Shown one piece after another: positions 7,315 through 44,002 of a stretch of DNA of 51,956 nt (position 1 is its first letter; every line of letters starts with the position of its first letter). The DNA lies in contig JBGQMB010000002.1 of NCBI GenBank assembly GCA_041500405.1, positions 1 through 51,956 on the forward strand, in the 5' to 3' direction. The notes beneath the pieces are model-generated. The model was not told where the DNA came from. It worked only from the letters and a program-made list of their open reading frames with translations, and did no database searches. Source of the stretch: Candidatus Micrarchaeia archaeon. Its GTDB lineage: Archaea > Micrarchaeota > Micrarchaeia > Anstonellales > J096. The translations under genes and the position numbers were made by a program.

Positions 7315-7340
7315 TTTTATTTTTTTATTTTCTTTTTTCT
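7315..7340 (+). terminator. Oligo-T terminator region after the S-layer gene
   Basis: TTTTATTTTTTTATTTTCTTTTTTCT lies ~20 nt after the stop. Archaeal termination uses T-tracts. Confidence 0.6.
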
Positions 7341-7427
7341 AAATTCAAGCCAGCGCCAGCTGATGCTCTAAACGCTTTTTCTTTCCCCAAGAAGCTTTTT
7401 AGGAAAAAGCTTCAGCAAAAACGACGT

Positions 7428-23613: not shown

Positions 23614-25389
23614 ATGGACATCGTGATAAAGATAGGCGCTGCCGCCGGGGAAGGGGCCTTTGTTATGGGCGCCACTGCAGGCAGGCTGTTCGCAAGGGGA
23701 GGATACCACGTTTTCGGGTATCCCGAATACCCGTCCCTGATAAGGGGAGGGCACAACTCATACCAGATAATCGTCTCTGACAGGAAGCTTGACGCCCCGC
23801 TGATGGAAAGCGACGTTGTCATAGCAGTGAACAAGGACGCGATAAAGTTCCATGCCGACTCCATAAAGAAGGGAGGGCTCCTGCTCTACGATTCGGAGCT
23901 GGATGTAAGCGGCATGAGCATAAGGGAGGATGTGAAGAAGGTGGGCGTGCCTGTCGCAAGCATAATAAGCGAGCAGAAGGCGGACCCGAAGATGAAAAAC
24001 ACCGCCTATCTGGGGGCGATGCTCGCAACAGTGGATTATCCCCTTGAGTATTTGACAAAGGCGCTTGAGGACCAGTTTTCAAGGAAGGGAAAGGATGTTG
24101 TTGACATGAATGTCAGGGTCGCAAAGGCCGGATATGACTATGTCAAATCGCAGTTCAAGCCAAGCGCGGCCATAAAGCCGATAGGCGGGCCAAGGCCGTA
24201 TATGACAGGCAATGATGCGCTTGCCATAGGATTCATAAGGGGAGGGCTCACGTTCTACGCGTCATACCCCATGACGCCGGCAACAACAATCCTGCATTAC
24301 CTTATCAAGAACCAGGAGAAGGCCGGTATAGTGGTCCTGCAGGCAGAGGACGAGATAGCCGCCGCGAACATGGCGGTCGGCGCGGCTTTCGCAGGGGCAA
24401 GGGCCGCCACAGGGACCAGCGGGGGCGGATTCGCGCTGAAAACCGAGACTGTCAGCATGGCGGCAATGGCGGAAACGCCGGTCGTTTTCTTCCTTGCGCA
24501 AAGGTCCGGGCCTTCAACAGGCATGCCGACCTGGACCGAGCAGGCTGACCTGTTCCAGGTGCTTGGGGCGGGGCAGGGCGAATTCCCAAGGGTCATCCTT
24601 GCGCCGGCAGACGCAAAGGAGATGGTGCAGATAGGCGCAGACTCGCTCAACATAGCCGAGGAGTTCCAGGTTCCGGTTTTCGTGCTTTCAGACAAGTACC
24701 TTTCGGAGAACTATTATACGATAGACGGGCTTGACATGGCGCACTTCAAGGTCAATAGGGGAAAGCTCGCCGACAGGGGGCTTCCGGAGCTCAAGCCAGG
24801 GCAGAAGTTCAAGAGATACGAGATAACGCAGGACGGCATATCGCCAAGAAGCGTTCCGGGCGTTCCGAACGGCCAGCACGTTGCCTCAAGCTACGAGCAC
24901 CAGGAGGACGGATATTCAACAGAATCGTTTGACATGAGGACCGCGCAGGTCGACAAGAGGCTTAGGAAGCTGGAAAAGATGCTGGCGCGCTCATACGAGC
25001 CGAAAATATACTCATTCAAGGGGGACGACGCCCTTGTTGTCTGGGGCTCCCAGCTCGGGCCGGCGCTCAAGGCCGCGGAAGAGGCGAAGATGGACGTCAT
25101 ACATTTCAGCTGGATATACCCGCTCAGCAAAGAGAAGATAATCAAGGCGTTCTCGAACTACAAGGCCGTTTATTTTGCGGAGAACAACAGGACCGGCGTG
25201 TTCGAAAAGGTCATGCTGCAGGAAACAGGGATAAGGCCCGTTGCGTCCATAAGGAAATACAACGGCAGGCCCCTGCTGCCCCACCAGCTGGTGAAGGCAA
25301 TGGAAACCGTGAGAAAGACAGGAAAGGATTGCCTGATAAAGAATGAGGAATATGACAATTTCGAGTTCTACTCCCCATGGAGATACTGA
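23614..25389 (+). CDS. 2-oxoacid:ferredoxin oxidoreductase, alpha subunit (fused gamma-alpha type)
   Basis: The N-terminal gamma-like module is IKIGAAAGEGAFVMGATAGRLFARGGYHVFGYPEYPSLIRGGHN. The alpha domain follows (MTGNDALAIGFIRGG...YPMTPAT...AEDEIAAANMAVGAAFAGARAATGTSGGGFAL). This is the two-subunit archaeal OFOR architecture. Confidence 0.88.
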   Translation: MDIVIKIGAAAGEGAFVMGATAGRLFARGGYHVFGYPEYPSLIRGGHNSYQIIVSDRKLDAPLMESDVVIAVNKDAIKFHADSIKKGGLLLYDSELDVSGMSIREDVKKVGVPVASIISEQKADPKMKNTAYLGAMLATVDYPLEYLTKALEDQFSRKGKDVVDMNVRVAKAGYDYVKSQFKPSAAIKPIGGPRPYMTGNDALAIGFIRGGLTFYASYPMTPATTILHYLIKNQEKAGIVVLQAEDEIAAANMAVGAAFAGARAATGTSGGGFALKTETVSMAAMAETPVVFFLAQRSGPSTGMPTWTEQADLFQVLGAGQGEFPRVILAPADAKEMVQIGADSLNIAEEFQVPVFVLSDKYLSENYYTIDGLDMAHFKVNRGKLADRGLPELKPGQKFKRYEITQDGISPRSVPGVPNGQHVASSYEHQEDGYSTESFDMRTAQVDKRLRKLEKMLARSYEPKIYSFKGDDALVVWGSQLGPALKAAEEAKMDVIHFSWIYPLSKEKIIKAFSNYKAVYFAENNRTGVFEKVMLQETGIRPVASIRKYNGRPLLPHQLVKAMETVRKTGKDCLIKNEEYDNFEFYSPWRY

Positions 25390-25399
25390 GGTTTTCAAA

Positions 25400-26275
25400 A
25401 TGGCAAACGTTAACGTTTTTGACGCGAATGAGAAGCCGCAATGGTGCCCTGGATGCGGGGACTACAGCATATTGGGCGCATTCAAGACCGCGATAACCGA
25501 ACTCGGGCTTGACCCGCACAGGGTCGTGCTTGTGACCGGAATCGGGTGCGGAAGCAAGATAGCGCACTATGTCCGCGCGTACGGGTATGAGGGCCTGCAC
25601 GGCAGGATACTGCCGCTTGCGGAGGGCATAAAGGCCGCGAACCCGAAGCTCACCGTGATTGGAATCGGCGGGGACGGGGACGGATTTTCGGAAGGAGGGA
25701 ACCACTTCGTGCACGCGCCAAGGAAAAACCTTGACTATACCTATATCGTGCAGGACAACCACATTTATGCATTGACAACCGGACAGGCGTCGCCGACAAC
25801 CCCGAAGAACCTGCCGACAAAGACGTCGCCAACGGAGCAATTGTACGAGGAGTACAAACCAATCGCCTCGGCGCTTGTCAATGGCGCGACATTCGTTGCG
25901 TCATCCTTTGCAGGCAACATGAGGCATACTGCGGACATGATGAAAAAGGCGATTGAGCATAAGGGATTCTCGTTCCTCCTTGTCTACCAGCCTTGCGTCA
26001 CTTGGAACAGTGTGAACACGTACCAATGGTACATGCAAAGGTGCTATGACATCCAGAAGGCGGGGCACAACGCGTCCGATTTTGACGCGGCGTTCGCAAA
26101 GGCGCTTGAGCCGTACAGGAACGGCTTTGAGAAATTGCCTGTCGGCGTTTTCTACGAAAGCAATGCGCGCAAGCCGCTTAATGAAATCCATCCGACCCTG
26201 GCAAAGGGGATTTTCCCCGCGGAAAAGGACATATCCAGCGTTGACATTTCAGCCCTGCTGAAGGAGAACGAGTGA
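25400..26275 (+). CDS. 2-oxoacid:ferredoxin oxidoreductase, beta subunit (TPP-binding)
   Basis: WCPGCGDYSIL, GIGCGSK, and the TPP motif GGDGDGFSEGGNH...NHIYALTTGQ. Confidence 0.9.
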   Translation: MANVNVFDANEKPQWCPGCGDYSILGAFKTAITELGLDPHRVVLVTGIGCGSKIAHYVRAYGYEGLHGRILPLAEGIKAANPKLTVIGIGGDGDGFSEGGNHFVHAPRKNLDYTYIVQDNHIYALTTGQASPTTPKNLPTKTSPTEQLYEEYKPIASALVNGATFVASSFAGNMRHTADMMKKAIEHKGFSFLLVYQPCVTWNSVNTYQWYMQRCYDIQKAGHNASDFDAAFAKALEPYRNGFEKLPVGVFYESNARKPLNEIHPTLAKGIFPAEKDISSVDISALLKENE

Positions 26276-26284
26276 AACGTTGCT

Positions 26285-26359
26285 CGCCCCCGTCGGGATT
26301 TGAACCCGCATCTCAGGCTCCGGAAGCCCGCATTCTGATCCAGGTTGAACTACGGGGGC
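26285..26359 (-). tRNA. tRNA-Arg (anticodon CCG)
   Basis: Acceptor GCCCCCG/CGGGGGC, anticodon arm CGGGC-TTCCGGA-GCCTG, T loop TTCAAAT. 75 nt. Identical to 28204-28278 except at the first anticodon base. Confidence 0.85.
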
Positions 26360-26383
26360 AAGGATAATGTTGCGGCAAAGGTG

Positions 26384-26391
26384 TTAAAAAT
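26384..26391 (-). promoter_or_regulatory. A/T box for tRNA-Arg(CCG), fused to the stop codon of ankyrin gene 1
   Basis: On the minus strand this reads TGATTTTTAACACCTTTGCCGCAACATTATCCTT, then the tRNA 5' end ~28 nt downstream. Confidence 0.6.
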
Positions 26392-26996
26392 CAGGCGGCG
26401 ACGCAATCGCTGAATGACTTCATGAATAAGCGCAACGTTTCCGTGCCTATCAGATTCGCAACGTTGAGGAATGGCACGATTTTAAGATGGACCCGATATG
26501 TGGAATAGCCTCCGACCGTAAGGCTGTTTTTCCACTTTTCCTGTGATGAAACTAACAATTTCGTTAAATCGCCGCCTGCCTTGGCATATCTTTCTATGAG
26601 CATGGCGCAGGTTTCCACACGTCTGTCCGCCGCTGCCTTGTGCATGGCAGTCAAATTCTCATTGTCCTTTGCGGCAATCAGTTCTTTTACATTTCCGCCT
26701 GCCCTGGCATATTCCTTAATAAGTAAGATGCAAATTTCTGTATAACCTTCCCATGCTGCCACATACAAAGCTGTCCAGCCTATAGGGCTCTTTGCGGCGA
26801 TGTCTGCGCCCTTCTTGATGAGCCGCCTAATCTCTGCAGCATTATTAGCGAATGCAGCGTTCATAAGCGCAAGATCCACCTCCTCGCGCTTCTGTTTTGA
26901 CATCATCATCCTTCTAACGGACCTTGTGCCTGATACGAATCTGTGCATTGCCTTTTTCCTGAAACGGCCTTGCTCTTTTTCCTTCTGGCGCTGCAT
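26391..26996 (-). CDS. Ankyrin-repeat protein 1 (basic N-terminus, C-terminal ...FMKSFSDCVAA)
   Basis: Ankyrin consensus pieces (GWTALYVAAWEGYTEICILLI; LTAMHKAAADRRVETCAMLI; LIKKGADIAAK). The start at MQRQKEKEQ lies ~27 nt from the A/T box at 27020-27027. Confidence 0.8.
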   Translation of the reverse strand: MQRQKEKEQGRFRKKAMHRFVSGTRSVRRMMMSKQKREEVDLALMNAAFANNAAEIRRLIKKGADIAAKSPIGWTALYVAAWEGYTEICILLIKEYARAGGNVKELIAAKDNENLTAMHKAAADRRVETCAMLIERYAKAGGDLTKLLVSSQEKWKNSLTVGGYSTYRVHLKIVPFLNVANLIGTETLRLFMKSFSDCVAA

Positions 26997-27019
26997 GCCT
27001 TTATTGTGCGGCAAACAGA

Positions 27020-27027
27020 TTAAAAAT
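27020..27027 (-). promoter_or_regulatory. A/T box of ankyrin gene 1
   Basis: The minus strand reads TATTTTTAATCTGTTTGCCGCACAATAAAGGC-ATG. The TTTGCCGCA spacer is shared with the tRNA-Arg(CCG) and ankyrin-2 promoters. Confidence 0.6.
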
Positions 27028-27092
27028 AGCACAGCAGTGCCAAAATTAGAGGTGGGTTAGCGTAAGGGAGGATACTTCCTCCCTCGAAGGGG

Positions 27093-27100
27093 TTAAAAAT
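27093..27100 (-). promoter_or_regulatory. Orphan A/T box fused to the stop of ankyrin gene 2, followed by a hairpin rather than a gene
   Basis: The minus strand reads TGATTTTTAACCCCTTCGA, then the hairpin GGGAGGA-agta-TCCTCCC (27066-27083). Confidence 0.45.
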
Positions 27101-27576
27101 CAGGCTGCAACGCAGTCGCTGAAGGATTTCATGAATGCGTTTCCCGTTGCGCCCACAAGCCATTCCATAGATCTGAGAAACAATGCAGTTTCATTGTGTT
27201 TGTTCAATTCGGCACGGTATAAGGCAGCATTGCCATCATTGTCCTTTGCAATTATAAGTTTCTTTACGTTCCCGCCTAACTTTGCATATTCATTCAATAA
27301 AAAAGCACAAGTTTTGGTATTTCCATTCTCTGCGGCATTGTGCAGGGCTGTGTAGCCATACATTTCCTTTGCGGCGATGTTCGCACCGGCCTTGATGAGC
27401 CGCAATACCTTTTCGTTGTCGCCCCTCCATGCGGCGCTGATGAGTGTTTTATCCAACTCCTCGCGCCTCTGTTTTGATATCAGCATCCTTCTAACGGACC
27501 TTGTGCTTGACTTCATCAGGCGCATCATTGTTTTCCTGAAACGGTCCGGCTTCTTTTCTCTCTGGCGCTGTGCCAT
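27100..27576 (-). CDS. Ankyrin-repeat protein 2 (basic N-terminus, C-terminal ...FMKSFSDCVAA)
   Basis: GYTALHNAAENGNTKTCAFLL, LIKAGANIAAK, and NAALYRAELNKHNETALFL. The start at MAQRQREKK lies ~27 nt from the A/T box at 27600-27607. Confidence 0.8.
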   Translation of the reverse strand: MAQRQREKKPDRFRKTMMRLMKSSTRSVRRMLISKQRREELDKTLISAAWRGDNEKVLRLIKAGANIAAKEMYGYTALHNAAENGNTKTCAFLLNEYAKLGGNVKKLIIAKDNDGNAALYRAELNKHNETALFLRSMEWLVGATGNAFMKSFSDCVAA

Positions 27577-27599
27577 GGCTTTATTATGCGGCAAAGGGG

Positions 27600-27607
27600 T
27601 TAAAAAT
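27600..27607 (-). promoter_or_regulatory. A/T box of ankyrin gene 2, fused to the stop of ankyrin gene 3
   Basis: The minus strand reads TGATTTTTAACCCCTTTGCCGCATAATAAAGCC-ATG. Confidence 0.6.
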
Positions 27608-28080
27608 CAGGCTGTGCACTCATTGAACGATTTTAGGAAGGCTGCTGCTGTTTCGATGCCGAACATTTCCCTGAACAGCCTGGTTGCAAGGAACTGCGCG
27701 GTTTCGGTGTGTCCTTTCTCTGAGGCCATGCGAATGGCGGTCTTGTCCCAACTGTCTTTTGCGGAGATAAACGCCTTTACGTCTCCGCCGGCTTTTGCGT
27801 ATTCCTCCAGAAGAAATGCGCAGGGTTGGATGCGTCCGTTCCCTGCGGCACGGTGTAGGGTTGTCTGACCGAACTCGCTCGGTGCAGCGATGTCGGCACC
27901 TTTCTTGATGAGACGCGCTATTTGCGCATTGTTGCCATAATATGCTTGACGCCTGATGTTGTAATTGAGCTGGTCCTGCCTTTTTTCAGTCAGTTTCGGC
28001 TTCTCGCTCGGTAGTGGCTTGTGCTTGGCTGGTTTTAGCCCCTTAAATATTCTTTTCAGCAACGGCTCTCGCTTCTGCAT
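27607..28080 (-). CDS. Ankyrin-repeat protein 3 (C-terminal ...FLKSFNECTA)
   Basis: GQTTLHRAAGNGRIQPCAFLL, LIKKGADIAAP, and KTAIRMASEKGHTETAQFL. The ORF-track start at 28344 runs through two tRNA sequences and is rejected. MQKREPLL (28080) parallels the other two N-termini; ATG 28086 is an alternative. Confidence 0.78.
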   Translation of the reverse strand: MQKREPLLKRIFKGLKPAKHKPLPSEKPKLTEKRQDQLNYNIRRQAYYGNNAQIARLIKKGADIAAPSEFGQTTLHRAAGNGRIQPCAFLLEEYAKAGGDVKAFISAKDSWDKTAIRMASEKGHTETAQFLATRLFREMFGIETAAAFLKSFNECTA

Positions 28081-28113
28081 TACCATATTAGGCGGCGAAG
28101 AGGTTATAAGGAT

Positions 28114-28140
28114 GCGCCCCCGTCGGGATTTGAACCCTGC
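28114..28140 (-). pseudogene. Isolated tRNA 3' fragment (T-arm plus 3' acceptor strand) related to tRNA-Arg
   Basis: The minus strand reads CAGGGTTCAAATCCCGACGGGGGCG. About 22 nt are identical to the 3' ends of both tRNA-Arg genes. No matching 5' acceptor strand (GCCCCCG) or anticodon arm lies in the 63 nt upstream. Confidence 0.6.
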
Positions 28141-28203
28141 GTGTTCAAACCCCTCTGATAAATAATCAAATGTCGATAACTTGCAGTAAGCAGTTGAAAA
28201 GCT

Positions 28204-28278
28204 CGCCCCCGTCGGGATTTGAACCCGCATCTCAGGCTCCGCAAGCCCGCATTCTGATCCAGGTTGAACTACGGGGGC
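28204..28278 (-). tRNA. tRNA-Arg (anticodon GCG)
   Basis: Same sequence as 26285-26359 except that the anticodon loop is TTGCGGA instead of TTCCGGA. Confidence 0.85.
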
Positions 28279-28302
28279 TATTGCATTTGTGCAACAAAGA
28301 GG

Positions 28303-28310
28303 TTTTAAAT
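28303..28310 (-). promoter_or_regulatory. A/T box for tRNA-Arg(GCG)
   Basis: The minus strand reads CATTTAAAACCTCTTTGTTGCACAAATGCAATAG, then the tRNA 5' end ~28 nt downstream. Confidence 0.6.
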
Positions 28311-28388
28311 GCCACCAGACGCGCATTTTGCGCCGGCGCCTCACAAGATATTAAAACATATGCCCTCTATCTCTTTCAGGTGTTTTTG

Positions 28389-28640
28389 ATGGGAGAAGTC
28401 GCAGTGACGTTCAAGGTTTTCGTTGAGGATATGTCGGTATTCGATGCTGTAAAGAAGGAGCTGGAAAAGGCCGGGGCAAAGAGCATGAAGGATGAGGAGG
28501 TCGGCTTCGGCATAAAGACCATAAGGGCGGTTTTCATAATCCCGGACGGGGAAGGGCAGATTGACAAGCTCGAGGCAAAGGTCTCGTCCCTGAAGGGCGT
28601 TTCCGAGATAAGAGCAGAGGAAATGGGAAGACTGATGTGA
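28389..28640 (+). CDS. Translation elongation factor aEF-1 beta
   Basis: 83 aa. MGEVAVTFKVFVEDMSVFDAVKKELEK...EVGFGIKTIRAVFIIPDGEGQIDKLEAKVSSLKGVSEIRAEEMGRL matches the archaeal EF-1beta pattern. AGGTG lies 8 nt upstream. The longer ORF-track N-terminus overlaps tRNA-Arg and is rejected. Confidence 0.88.
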   Translation: MGEVAVTFKVFVEDMSVFDAVKKELEKAGAKSMKDEEVGFGIKTIRAVFIIPDGEGQIDKLEAKVSSLKGVSEIRAEEMGRLM

Positions 28641-41638: not shown

Positions 41639-42247
41639 ATGATAATACTTGACAGCCCGAGGCTGGAGGTCAGGGGAAACTTCGCCTTTGTCGACGGGAA
41701 GCTTGTCAAGGGGATAATGCACTACAGCATATCCGATGTCTGGGGCAGCTACATTGAGGAAGCAAAAGGCATAAGCAGGCCCGCCTATTCGGTCACAACA
41801 ATACAATACAACTCAAGGAACTTCGACATTTTCGTGATTCCGTACAAGGAGGTCGGCCCATATTATACCAAGACAATCCCGCACAGGGCGAACTACTCCG
41901 AATATTACCAGGTGCTTTGGGGAAACCCGCTTTTCGAGGTCTGGAAGGACAATGAGGAGGACGGGACCGTTTCCGTGCGAAAAGGGGCAAAAAGACCGAT
42001 AAGCACGATAATGGTGAATAGCAAGGAGCGCATGACCATGTTCAACCAGGGCCACGAGACCGCCGTTGTCCTTGGCTACACGTCCGGCAACCGCGAGGAC
42101 CGCAGCGCGAAGGAGCCGATAATGATGGGGCCCAATGCCATTGAGATGAACTCGGCAACGCTGATGAAAAAGCAGGAAAGCCTTGAGAACGAGAACCTCA
42201 ACCTCCTGGCGCTTCTGCAAAAGGCGTGCAAAAACCTTCTCCGGTAA
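41639..42247 (+). CDS. Hypothetical protein (beta-rich, possibly cupin-like)
   Basis: The ATG immediately follows the upstream TAG. The only weak cue is IPHRANYSEYYQVLWGNPLFEVW. Confidence 0.5.
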   Translation: MIILDSPRLEVRGNFAFVDGKLVKGIMHYSISDVWGSYIEEAKGISRPAYSVTTIQYNSRNFDIFVIPYKEVGPYYTKTIPHRANYSEYYQVLWGNPLFEVWKDNEEDGTVSVRKGAKRPISTIMVNSKERMTMFNQGHETAVVLGYTSGNREDRSAKEPIMMGPNAIEMNSATLMKKQESLENENLNLLALLQKACKNLLR

Positions 42248-42273
42248 AAGCCCATCCCAACAGCAATCGCTTG

Positions 42274-43667
42274 TGACATGATGAGTAAGAAATCCCAAGT
42301 GCTTTAGCTGTGGGATGAAAGCTAACAATATGTAGAAAAAAGCAAGGTTTTATCCAAAATGCGCCGATAAACCTCACATCTTCTTTAATGGTAAGAATAT
42401 ATCACAAACATGTTTGGCAATGAGGCCTGCAATTCTTTATAAATGCCAAAAAACCAAAGAATTAAGGGACAATAAATGAGATCTTACAAATTCAGGAGAT
42501 ATCCGAGCAAAACACAGGAAGAAAAAATGCGTGAGCACCTTTGGATAGCAAAAGAATTATGGAACAGGATGCTTGAGGCAACGATAAAAAAGTATAATTT
42601 AGAAAAGAAGTTCTATTCAAAATCAGAGCTTCAGTTCATGACCAAAAACAGCGGTCTATATTCCCAAACAGCTCAGGGGGTAGCACATAGGCTGGATAGA
42701 GCCTTGAAAGCGAAAATGCGCATGAAAAAGAAGGAAGAAAAAGGCGGCTTCCCGCGCTTCAAATCCTTTTTCAAAATGAAAAGTCTCTTTTATCCGCAAT
42801 CTGGCTTTTCTCTTGGCAAGAAACTGAAAGTAAGCCCATTTGGGGAAATAAGCATAAAGAAGCATAGAGAGATAAAAGGAAAGATCAAAACTCTCACGAT
42901 AAAGCGTATGCCGTCTGGCAAATGGTTTGCAGTTTTCTGTGCTGAACAGGAACAAAAGTCAATAAGAGAAAACAATGGAATACAGATTGGGATAGACCTC
43001 GGCTTGAAGACTTTTGCCGCTCTTTCAAATGGAATGACCATCGCTAACCCAAGGCACCTGAAAAGATATGAGAATAAGCTTGCGTCTCTCCAAAGGAAGG
43101 TTTCAAAAAGGGAAAAATGCAGCGGAAAAAGAAGGAAAGCAAACCTGAAAGTTGAACGCTTGCATGAAAAGATAGCTAACACAAGGAAGGATTTCTTGCA
43201 TAAAACGTCAACGCAATTGGTAAATAATTATTCCCTTATAGCGTTGGAGAAGCTTGCCAGCAAGAAAATGGCAGGTCAGAATTTGGGAAAGTTAATCAAT
43301 GACGCCGGATGGGGAATGTTCGCGAACATGATTCGCTACAAGGCTGAAAGTGCTGGTTGTGAAGTTGTGTTTGTGGATCCGGAGAATACTACGCAAGAGT
43401 GCAGCAGCTGCGGTCAGATAGTAAATAAAGAATTACACGAAAGAACGCATAACTGTCCGTTCTGCGGTCTTTCTGTAGATAGGGATTTGAACGCATCAAT
43501 AAACATACTCAAAAGAGCTACCGCCGGGCAGGCGGGAAGTAACGCTTCTGGAGACGGAACAAGAATTCCGTCATTGAAGGAAGAAGCCCACGCCTTTTAA
43601 GGATAGGGCTTGTCACAAAAACAACAGTTGAAGCTTAATCATGTCAAATACCACCTAAAAGATTAAG
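42274..43667 (+). mobile_element. IS200/IS605-superfamily TnpB-only element (boundaries approximate)
   Basis: A+T-rich relative to its flanks. TGACATGAT..TAAG at 42274-42289 is mirrored by CTTAATCATGTCA at 43634-43646. There are hairpins at 42292-42316 (ATCCCA...TGGGAT) and 43634-43667 (CTTAATC...GATTAAG). No tnpA is present. Confidence 0.55.
42476..43600 (+). CDS. tnpB: TnpB (IS605 OrfB family) RuvC-like, probably RNA-guided, nuclease
   Basis: 374 aa. N-terminus YKFRRYPSKTQEE. RuvC-I IGIDLGLKTFAALSNG, RuvC-II IALEKL, zinc finger CSSCGQ...HNCPFCG, RuvC-III DRDLNASINIL. Confidence 0.9.
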   Translation: MRSYKFRRYPSKTQEEKMREHLWIAKELWNRMLEATIKKYNLEKKFYSKSELQFMTKNSGLYSQTAQGVAHRLDRALKAKMRMKKKEEKGGFPRFKSFFKMKSLFYPQSGFSLGKKLKVSPFGEISIKKHREIKGKIKTLTIKRMPSGKWFAVFCAEQEQKSIRENNGIQIGIDLGLKTFAALSNGMTIANPRHLKRYENKLASLQRKVSKREKCSGKRRKANLKVERLHEKIANTRKDFLHKTSTQLVNNYSLIALEKLASKKMAGQNLGKLINDAGWGMFANMIRYKAESAGCEVVFVDPENTTQECSSCGQIVNKELHERTHNCPFCGLSVDRDLNASINILKRATAGQAGSNASGDGTRIPSLKEEAHAF

Positions 43668-44002
43668 TGGGTTTTTGATTATGTCATTGTAGGCTTTATT
43701 ATATACCCCAATCGTTCTCTGCAAAGACAGCCTCTTGTCAAACGGAATTTTCAGGATTTGCTTTATAGATATGTCATCATTGATATATCTATTTAATAAT
43801 CTTATAGTTCTAACAGACGATGTGGAAAAATTATCATCGTATGCAGAATACGGGATTAGTTATCATTTTATATGGTTTACTGGATATAATATTATTGCAA
43901 CAGAGGGTGTTTCTACTGAAACTATTAATCAATATACACAAGAACAGGAGAACTGCAATTCCTCTCCTTGTTTAAACGAGGGATCTCCTTAGAGGTGATT
44001 TT

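Follow-up and report, generated by a model that had tools for sequence, protein, structure and literature searches.

The 51,956 nucleotides (nt) of Candidatus Micrarchaeia DNA analysed here (the window) carry, on the minus strand, three genes for ankyrin-repeat proteins, ank1, ank2 and ank3, enclosed by two genes for arginine tRNAs. We interpret this locus as a variable slot that, in one Micrarchaeia clade, lies between two isoacceptor tRNA-Arg genes and that in the window is occupied by three old paralogues; we put the probability of this reading at roughly 60%. The three proteins belong to a lineage-specific, multi-copy ankyrin family of the Micrarchaeia (DPANN archaea), the homologues of which come from sources named Candidatus Micrarchaeota or Micrarchaeia, and a literature search found no published description of this family. 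Symbionts with expanded ankyrin families, variable regions linked to tRNA genes and leaderless genes in archaea are already known, and current views of them stand; what is new is an uncharacterised, lineage-specific ankyrin family in a tRNA-linked variable region, with a promoter conserved throughout the family as a notable addition.

Read along the minus strand, as throughout for the slot, the locus comprises tRNA-Arg(GCG) (28204..28278), 66 nt, a 23-nt copy of the tRNA 3' end, ank3 (27607..28080), ank2 (27100..27576), an orphan TATA box with a hairpin, ank1 (26391..26996) and tRNA-Arg(CCG) (26285..26359). This order, proposed in an earlier note made from the sequence, is borne out by ARAGORN, Rfam, the open reading frames (ORFs) and a repeat search; the 66-nt spacer had there been given as 63 nt. 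ARAGORN and Rfam both recognise tRNA-Arg(GCG) (RF00005, 53.2 bits) and tRNA-Arg(CCG) (52.2 bits, with ends at 26284/5 and 26359/60 depending on the tool), and the two genes, described earlier as near-identical, differ solely at anticodon position 34. In an Rfam scan of the locus at a permissive threshold only these two tRNAs were found; fragment, spacer and hairpin were unmatched, the other matches having E ≥0.25 and lying far below threshold. The slot is bounded on the left by the EF-1beta gene (28389..28640, plus strand; PF00736 annotation on L001/L002, with orthologues in relatives), which precedes tRNA-Arg(GCG) on the opposite strand, and on the right, beyond tRNA-Arg(CCG), by the convergent gene for the beta subunit of 2-oxoacid:ferredoxin oxidoreductase (POR-beta; 25343..26275, plus strand; PF02775/PF12367). 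The same locus is present on a JGI contig and in the NCBI assembly GCA_041478675.1.

Comparison with related loci, designated by L and a number, reveals that four related genomes keep the tRNA-Arg bracket and that its contents differ among relatives whose EF-1beta proteins are 87–98% identical. In L029 (EF-1beta 89% identical to that of the window), tRNA-Arg(GCG) is followed by 84 nt, an orthologue of ank1, tRNA-Arg(CCG), 55 nt, the tRNA fragment and then a gene other than POR. In L040 (93%), tRNA-Arg(GCG) leads directly into CATCCTTATAATCTCTTTGCCGTACAATAAAGCC-ATG, one divergent family member, tRNA-Arg(CCG) and POR-beta, and L047 (92%) has the same layout with yet another family member. The closest relative, L046 (98%), has a 68-residue predicted membrane protein after tRNA-Arg(GCG) (L046:93-460), at which point the contig ends. 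The content of the slot turns over much faster than its flanks, where POR-beta is 84% identical in L040 and the surface protein 61–82%. No tRNA/ankyrin slot was found next to EF-1beta in more distant relatives (EF-1beta 63–64% identical); since the bracket is kept in four genomes and missing from these, it is ancestral to a small clade and restricted to it.

Recent local amplification, also suggested in the earlier note, fits the sequences poorly. Overall, the ank1–3 proteins share 34–52% identity, with 42–52% between ank1 and ank2 depending on the method (BLASTP, MAFFT) and 34–35% between ank1 and ank3. The ank1 protein is, on the other hand, 76% identical to P0006, the product of the single gene in the syntenic slot of L029, so that the split between ank1 and ank2 predates that speciation. 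The closest relatives of ank2, P0048 and P0044 (52–54%), come from a different genome, where their genes form part of a three-gene array at a different locus, and those of ank3 are P0040 and P0043 (49%), the latter encoded in the other array of the window's genome. Because their mutual identity is low and closer relatives occur elsewhere, we conclude that ank1–3 are, as judged by sequence, old paralogues.

All three proteins exceed the Pfam gathering thresholds for ankyrin repeats (Ank_2 PF12796, Ank_4 PF13637 and Ank PF00023), and the ankyrin assignments accordingly hold. The Ank_2 scores are 50.3 bits for ank1 (cut-off 27.3), 42.7 bits for ank2 and 35.3 bits for ank3, which also scores 45.2 bits with Ank_4 (cut-off 22.7). 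The ank1, ank2 and ank3 proteins consist of 201, 158 and 157 residues, respectively. They share, as had been described, a very basic amino-terminal segment of about 45 residues, with a net charge of +9 to +11, and a C-terminal tail, F(M/L)KSFx(D/E)C, the chains ending in CVAA in ank1 and ank2 and in CTA in ank3. A search for hydrophobic segments in ank1–3 found none. An AlphaFold2 model of ank1 has a mean predicted local distance difference test (pLDDT) score of 82.8, with values above 90 for the ankyrin core, residues 31–150. When this model was compared with the PDB using Foldseek, the only matches were to designed ankyrin-repeat proteins (DARPins), with E values of ~1e-6, TM scores of ~0.55–0.7 on the target and a root-mean-square deviation of ~2 Å over ~108 residues; none was informative on the N- and C-terminal modules. 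PADLOC defence models gave partial matches only (26–36 bits, to the repeat part of the PDC-M72A and Ankyrin models) and no full-length match.

A profile search identified ~60 strong relatives of 150–285 residues, and genome contigs were scanned for family members with a three-sequence alignment. In the family alignment of 58 proteins, the N-terminus, M(A)Q(E/R)(R/K)..., is strongly basic, with a median net charge of +6 in 40 residues. It is followed by two to five ankyrin repeats, often of a variant of ~40 residues with the insert EYAKAGGDVKxLIxAKD, and by a helix ending F(M)KSFxEC(V/I)(A/S)x, in which the cysteine is near-invariant. The variable alignment columns coincide with the canonical target-binding positions of the ankyrin scaffold (D-x-x-G-x-T-A-L-H-x-A-A-x-x-G). 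A search for non-ankyrin proteins with the same C-terminal tail returned only 16 candidates and one weak ankyrin match, and is uninformative owing to the word index.

Ankyrin-repeat proteins are rare in archaea, as had been noted: of the archaeal strains surveyed in 2014, 11% had any such protein, and more than one was found in just four species (PMC3932732). The present family, by comparison, has at least seven copies in the window's genome, ~24 at nine loci in the metagenome-assembled genome (MAG) JBGQMY01 and three loci in the LacPavin MAG. Its members are mostly found in head-to-tail arrays with spacers of ~30 nt, and no tRNA-Arg gene was found adjoining the other arrays and loci of the family that were examined. 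The second array of the window's genome (L043:3679-7620; GCA_041478675.1, contig JBGOWN010000004.1) contains four to five family genes, between the first and second of which sits a Fic/DOC-domain gene (305 residues; PF02661, 65 bits) that does not have the family promoter. One family gene (L005:7979-7990) follows a perfect promoter module, yet its second codon is TAG (ATG TAG GAA AGG...); a fresh pseudogene, a sequencing error or use of a downstream start at MMEK would each account for this.

The promoter that unites the family is a module of ~33 nt in which the first T of the TATA box lies at -30 and is followed by TTTGCCGCACAATAAAGGC up to the ATG, the consensus being (T)GATTTTTAAC(A/C)CCTTTGCCGCACAATAAAGGC followed immediately by ATG. 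It precedes nearly every family member in at least five genomes, including those at many loci without tRNA genes, and is conserved between paralogues sharing only 30–40% protein identity. It is thus not peculiar to this locus. Of the outcome named in the earlier note as refuting its reading, the same genes at unrelated loci and with unrelated promoters, only half was observed: family members do occur at unrelated loci, but they still carry the family promoter there. Within the window, the ank2 module, TGATTTTTAACCCCTTTGCCGCATAATAAAGCC (27577..27609), overlaps the ank3 stop codon, and the ank1 module, CTATTTTTAATCTGTTTGCCGCACAATAAAGGC, occupies 26997..27029. The tRNA-Arg(CCG) promoter (26361..26393), which overlaps the ank1 stop codon, corresponds to the family module over roughly its first 22 nt (TGATTTTTAACACCTTTGCCGCA). 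The 20-mer TTTTTAACNCCTTTGCCGCA occurs in three copies in the window, at ank1, ank2 and tRNA-Arg(CCG), against 0.02 expected. Looser modules precede ank3 (28081..28113; TATA box CTTATAA, then CCTCTTCGCCGCC) and tRNA-Arg(GCG) (28280..28312; TATA-like ATTTAAAA with CTCTTTGTTGCACAA, ending 1 nt before the tRNA 5' end).

The same division into tight and looser modules, made by eye in the earlier note, is returned by a weight matrix trained on 31 modules, all from outside the window. In a scan of ~104,000 window positions (mean -34, standard deviation 10.8), the two top scores are those of ank2 (41.6) and ank1 (40.6), followed by tRNA-Arg(CCG) (23.2, rank 3) and tRNA-Arg(GCG) (20.8, rank 4); ank3, aligned to its second ATG, scores 17.0 and the orphan TATA box 11.8, the latter from its TATA part alone. 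Across 192 kb from further loci of Micrarchaeia, sites scoring 24 or more almost always precede family genes, and the remainder lie at the downstream ends of arrays, ahead of whatever follows. Such copies stand ahead of non-family ORFs at L013:8822, L003:8617 and L010:8510, which suggests that array-terminal promoters get co-opted by non-family ORFs. A fourth, at L040:7267, stands ahead of a 142-residue gene upstream of tRNA-Arg(GCG).

The geometry of the module is that of a leaderless promoter. The TATA boxes of the ankyrin genes are centred ~26–27 nt before the ATG (TTTTTAA with its first T at -30 for ank1 and ank2; TTATAA at -29 from the second ATG for ank3), exactly as in 48 control genes, and no Shine-Dalgarno sequence is present at ank1–3. 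Other genes of the window likewise have a TATA box 22–25 nt before the ATG and no Shine-Dalgarno sequence, so the leaderless architecture is general here; operon-internal genes have GGTGA/GAGG. The description of the units as promoter–gene modules holds, and their architecture is compatible with leaderless transcripts. The stop codons of ank1, ank2 and ank3, reported to be fused to the next A/T box, all lie within TGATTTTTAAC, such that the TGA of the previous gene and a T5 run fall inside the TATA box of the next. What sets the family apart from the controls is the segment between TATA box and start codon: positions -22 to -1 hold ~15 bits of information, compared with 3.5 bits in the 48 control promoters of equal TATA spacing. 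The best copies also contain an inverted repeat, CCTTT-N10-AAAGG, which is not kept in many members.

These promoters have also affected gene annotation. The N-terminal extensions LPHNKGM and MPHNKAM are, as the earlier note recognised, translated promoter, and the same 'PHN' artefact occurs upstream of paralogues in other genomes; the 225-residue call of P0006 also includes translated promoter and is an annotation artefact. For ank3 we take the second ATG (28080; alternative start 28086) to be the likely start, in keeping with the N-termini of the family, its own being of the type MQKREPLLKR, and with the TATA spacing. The public call for ank3 has 239 residues (L001:7466-8185 and L002:9251-9970, corresponding to window 27607-28326), and its N-terminal extension, which runs through the tRNA fragment and the entire tRNA-Arg(GCG) gene, is an annotation artefact.

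Between ank2 and ank1, the orphan promoter and hairpin reported earlier are both present. The orphan TATA box, TGATTTTTAACCCCTTCG... (27070..27102), is fused to the ank2 stop codon and has no gene at the expected distance, and the hairpin GAGGGAGGA-AGUA-UCCUCCCUU (27064..27085) has 9 bp, a folding free energy of -21.2 kcal/mol and a z score of -2.7. Hairpins at window 27064-27085, L029:5318-5339 and L047:4723-4747 are unrelated to each other, GC- or AT-rich, and located just past gene ends, and they occur wherever the next promoter leaves the stop codon un-overlapped; a role as terminators or as boundary elements is possible. The ank1 3' end with the tRNA-Arg(CCG) promoter and the ank2 end with the orphan TATA box form a 50-nt repeat of 88% identity.

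The tRNA-Arg(CCG) promoter scores 22.2 in L029, 17.1 in L047 and 12.6 in L040, and the promoters of the slot tRNA-Arg genes score 12–23 in most relatives, compared with -31 to +3 for other tRNA promoters. Through the 50-nt repeat, the tRNA-Arg(CCG) promoter is recognised as the array-terminal copy of the family module. The tRNA-Arg(GCG) promoter is also conserved in L029, and the ank3 promoter is homologous to the L040 promoter that abuts tRNA-Arg(GCG). TATA-like boxes lie 31–38 nt upstream of mature tRNA 5' ends in the window (16551, 17306, 26359, 28278 and 33402). Such positions would imply tRNA leaders of ~1–8 nt, the predicted start for both tRNA-Arg genes being 1 nt before the mature end.

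A further peculiarity of the family is its codon usage, which was compared for window 26391-28086 and the family genes in L003–L013, L040, L043 and L044. In four genomes, CGN codons make up 34–44% of arginine codons in family genes and 10–24% in neighbouring genes, a two- to four-fold difference; for the window's genome the values are 44% and 20% (p = 1.7e-5). The GC content at third codon positions (GC3) is lower in family genes than in their neighbours. The tRNAs flanking the slot are decoders of CGY and CGG. These preferences might indicate that the genes are weakly codon-optimised, that they are of foreign origin or that they are functionally tied to the flanking tRNAs, which decode CGN.

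The conserved post-TATA segment would be either the operator of a single family regulator or an exaggerated consensus core promoter. In the latter case the module would be an optimal core promoter kept by high expression, with no regulator of its own, and the tRNA-Arg promoters would resemble it through convergence of strong promoters or through local descent. The weak preferences that control promoters show at these positions, the resemblance of the slot tRNA-Arg promoters to the module and the inheritance of the array-terminal copy with the gene's 3' end all speak for this explanation. Nevertheless, the other tRNA promoters are presumably strong and do not score above +3, the promoters of ribosomal-protein and EF genes in the window are unmatched, and rare CGN codons and lower GC3 argue against high expression. 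We regard it as possible, though on the unlikely side.

The 23-nt tRNA fragment bears on whether the slot has been shaped by integration. The exact 23-nt 3' end, extending from the T-loop to the discriminator, occurs three times in the locus, and the copies at 28204-28226, within tRNA-Arg(GCG), and 28115-28137, the attR-like fragment, are spaced 89 nt apart. CATCCTTATAA comes after the fragment and, in L040, after the intact tRNA-Arg(GCG); the sequence next to the fragment in the window, CATCCTTATAACC..., is that found directly after the intact gene in L040 and L047. In the latter genomes the 66-nt spacer (28138..28203) is absent and the site is empty, tRNA-Arg(GCG) leading directly into CATCC..TATAATCTCT.., whereas the CATCC flank comes after the fragment both in the window and in L029. 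Since this flank follows the intact tRNA gene in L040 and L047, the fragment is the displaced original 3' end of tRNA-Arg(GCG), 66 nt and a new 3' end having been inserted, and the spacer is a probable remnant of the inserted DNA. Across the junction lies a palindrome, GGGGTTTGAAC-ACGCAGG-GTTCAAATCCC (28125..28153), which folds with a DNA z score of -3.0 and has its right arm inside the fragment. Its 11-bp arms and 7-nt spacer correspond to the geometry used by tyrosine-recombinase core sites. The same structure is kept in L029, where the 16 nt to the left of the fragment, which form the palindrome with its T-loop part, are also conserved. Overall, this scar looks like an attR site of a tRNA-targeting element, around 66 nt rather than around the ankyrin genes. 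A split-tRNA or tRNA-half gene was rejected as an account of the fragment: its T-stem would be 3 bp, the identity starting only at position 51. A single excision and reintegration event, which might link the window with L029, where the contig ends, fits one junction and not the other.

The suggestion of an integration remnant at this locus is therefore correct in that an att-like scar is present and incorrect in that the scar encloses only the 66 nt upstream of ank3. An alternative is that a mobile element integrated into tRNA-Arg(GCG) brought in the ankyrin genes, and perhaps tRNA-Arg(CCG), as its cargo, forming an att-bounded islet. Such an islet would account for the three direct 23-nt repeats with their recombinase-like palindrome, for slot contents that are different in each relative, L046 having a non-ankyrin gene, and for the atypical codon usage and GC3; in L029, moreover, the interval from tRNA-Arg(GCG) to the fragment does hold the ank1 orthologue and tRNA-Arg(CCG). 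In the window, however, no genes lie inside the attL–attR interval, the bracket is conserved in four genomes, the locus and its surroundings have the same GC content, no integrase is nearby, viral contigs are unmatched and the family occupies many chromosomal loci without tRNAs. Together these observations make cargo of this kind decidedly unlikely.

We are more doubtful still that the ~30-nt element is an integron-like cassette recombination site or an RNA signal for processing or re-initiation in a polycistronic transcript. It is much better conserved than the coding sequences, its best copies contain the inverted repeat, the arrays vary in gene content as cassette arrays do and the element persists at downstream array ends before unrelated genes or a tRNA. 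Yet its TATA-to-ATG distance is exactly that of unrelated leaderless genes, it precedes single genes and the first genes of arrays too, there is no Shine-Dalgarno sequence and the inverted repeat is lost in many members; no integrase was present beside any array inspected, and the spacer shows promoter geometry.

Recent duplication in place, between the tRNA genes, of one ankyrin gene with its promoter would explain the head-to-tail units with near-identical promoters and gene ends, and the 5' regions of ank1 and ank2 are somewhat more alike in nucleotide sequence (64–78%) than the core (51–64%), but it is very improbable in view of the low protein identities, an ank1/ank2 split older than the separation from the P0006 genome, the closer relatives of ank2 and ank3 at other loci and a promoter that is just as well conserved in paralogues at unlinked loci. 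That ank1 and ank2 have recently undergone gene conversion was also considered and is unconvincing, the 5' identity being only modestly higher.

The mechanism that we propose for the variable slot is the following. Each gene would be an autonomous leaderless transcription unit, with TGATTTTTAA acting at once as stop codon, oligo-T terminator and TATA box of the next unit. The post-TATA segment (-20 to -1) would be the site of one putative regulator switching the whole family, or else an optimised core promoter; under the former version, tRNA-Arg(CCG) would be co-switched through the array-terminal copy of the module. The proteins would be soluble protein-binding adaptors with diversified surfaces, used in host-cell interaction. 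Recombination would reshuffle the arrays and the slot, acting on the conserved promoters and gene ends and also, in a site-specific manner, on the 23-nt core of the tRNA, where it would have left the 66-nt scar.

By analogy, the ank genes probably encode soluble, polybasic, Cys-tailed binding proteins for host interaction. A partner- or host-interaction role had been suggested before and seems plausible to us, given that ankyrin proteins are rare in archaea and are here expanded in a DPANN symbiont. A more elaborate version can be envisaged, in which one regulator acts on the -20 to -1 segment of ~10–25 ankyrin genes per genome and also drives tRNA-Arg(CCG), the supply of tRNA-Arg(CCG) and tRNA-Arg(GCG) gates translation of the CGN-enriched genes, the products are delivered to a host archaeon, and the polybasic N-terminus and a lipid-modified, metal-bonded or disulfide-bonded cysteine anchor them to membrane or target. 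We think it improbable that this co-regulated effector regulon is right as a whole.

Several observations weigh against these interpretations. The 48 control promoters show weak preferences at module positions (TTT at -19 to -17 and CA.AA at -12 to -8), so that the module could be merely a near-consensus strong promoter. Transcription start sites, separate transcripts and termination at the T5 run are read from sequence only. The host-interaction role is argued from bacterial symbionts, and the proteins have no secretion signal or known delivery route; the C-terminal helix of ank1 is modelled with low confidence (pLDDT ~60). As regards the scar, no integrase domain is found in the annotated neighbourhood, IMG/VR viral contigs scanned for the palindrome with the att sequence and for the 23-mer gave no match, and no single model fully explains the arrangement in L029, with the fragment after tRNA-Arg(CCG) and a non-POR gene beyond.

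Elsewhere in the window, an AT-rich site, ATTTTTTTATTTTCTTTTTTCTAAATTCAAGCC (7320-7352, plus strand), scores 20.8 with the family matrix but is not followed by an ATG; it probably represents either a further promoter or a terminator region. The GC content drops at 1-1000 (0.35) and 42000-44000 (0.40–0.43), compared with ~0.52 elsewhere.

DPANN archaea depend on host cells, and few of the proteins responsible for this dependence are known. With ~1–2% of the genes in a genome of ~1 Mb, the present family supplies candidate host-interaction factors and a candidate first DPANN regulon, because its members combine variable surfaces on a conserved scaffold, terminal modules of their own and a promoter much more strongly conserved than the coding sequence. 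The family promoter, with its ACCTTTGCCGCACAATAAAGGC segment, is a ready DNA bait for a regulator and a search pattern for family genes, and the tRNA-Arg slot illustrates how such families are reshuffled.

The closest functional parallels are the ankyrin effectors of Legionella (Ank/Leg), Wolbachia, Rickettsia, Coxiella and Amoebophilus, where many small ankyrin paralogues, with variable binding positions on a conserved scaffold, are likewise found in reduced genomes of obligately partner-dependent organisms. The Fic-domain gene in one array of the window's genome also recalls these systems, Fic domains being present in effectors such as AnkX. The Micrarchaeia differ in being archaea, with other archaea rather than eukaryotes as their likely partners, and in having no type IV secretion system or secretion signal. 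The NCBIfam equivalogs for Legionella AnkX, AnkY, AnkH and AnkG match with only 17–23 bits, against cut-offs of 500–1400, and in the generic repeat region only; the polybasic N-terminal and Cys-containing C-terminal modules and the family-wide promoter are the Micrarchaeia family's own.

Legionella AnkB combines ankyrin repeats with a C-terminal CaaX box that is farnesylated by the host, and the CVAA termini of ank1 and ank2 are reminiscent of it. Among 69 tails of the family, 45 have exactly three residues after the invariant cysteine, most of them reading C-(I/V/L/T)-(A/S/G)-x. In 17 of the 69, including that of ank3, there are two such residues, however, and in seven there are four to nine; the a2 position is mostly Ala, Ser or Gly rather than aliphatic, and conservation reaches ~10 residues upstream of the cysteine (FMKSFxEC). 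Protein prenyltransferases are not known from archaea. Because the distance from the cysteine to the C-terminus varies, we do not assign the family to the CaaX class in the strict sense. The DARPins, the best structural matches, differ from the family in lacking the extra terminal modules and the insert of six to seven residues (EYAKAGGDVKxLI) seen in many of its repeats.

Integrative elements that use tyrosine recombinases to enter tRNA genes share with the scar a direct repeat of the tRNA 3' end, a displaced flank, an empty site in relatives and the arm and spacer lengths of the palindrome; the scar differs from them in having 66 nt between the repeats, no integrase gene and no IMG/VR match, and in its occurrence behind the other tRNA-Arg gene in L029. 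Finally, the ankyrin genes resemble archaeal leaderless units in the distance of the TATA centre from the ATG, in the missing Shine-Dalgarno sequence and in the T5 run after the stop codon. They differ in the family-wide conservation from TATA box to ATG and in the fusion of stop codon, terminator and TATA box within one 10-mer, features that are, to our knowledge, not general in archaeal promoters.

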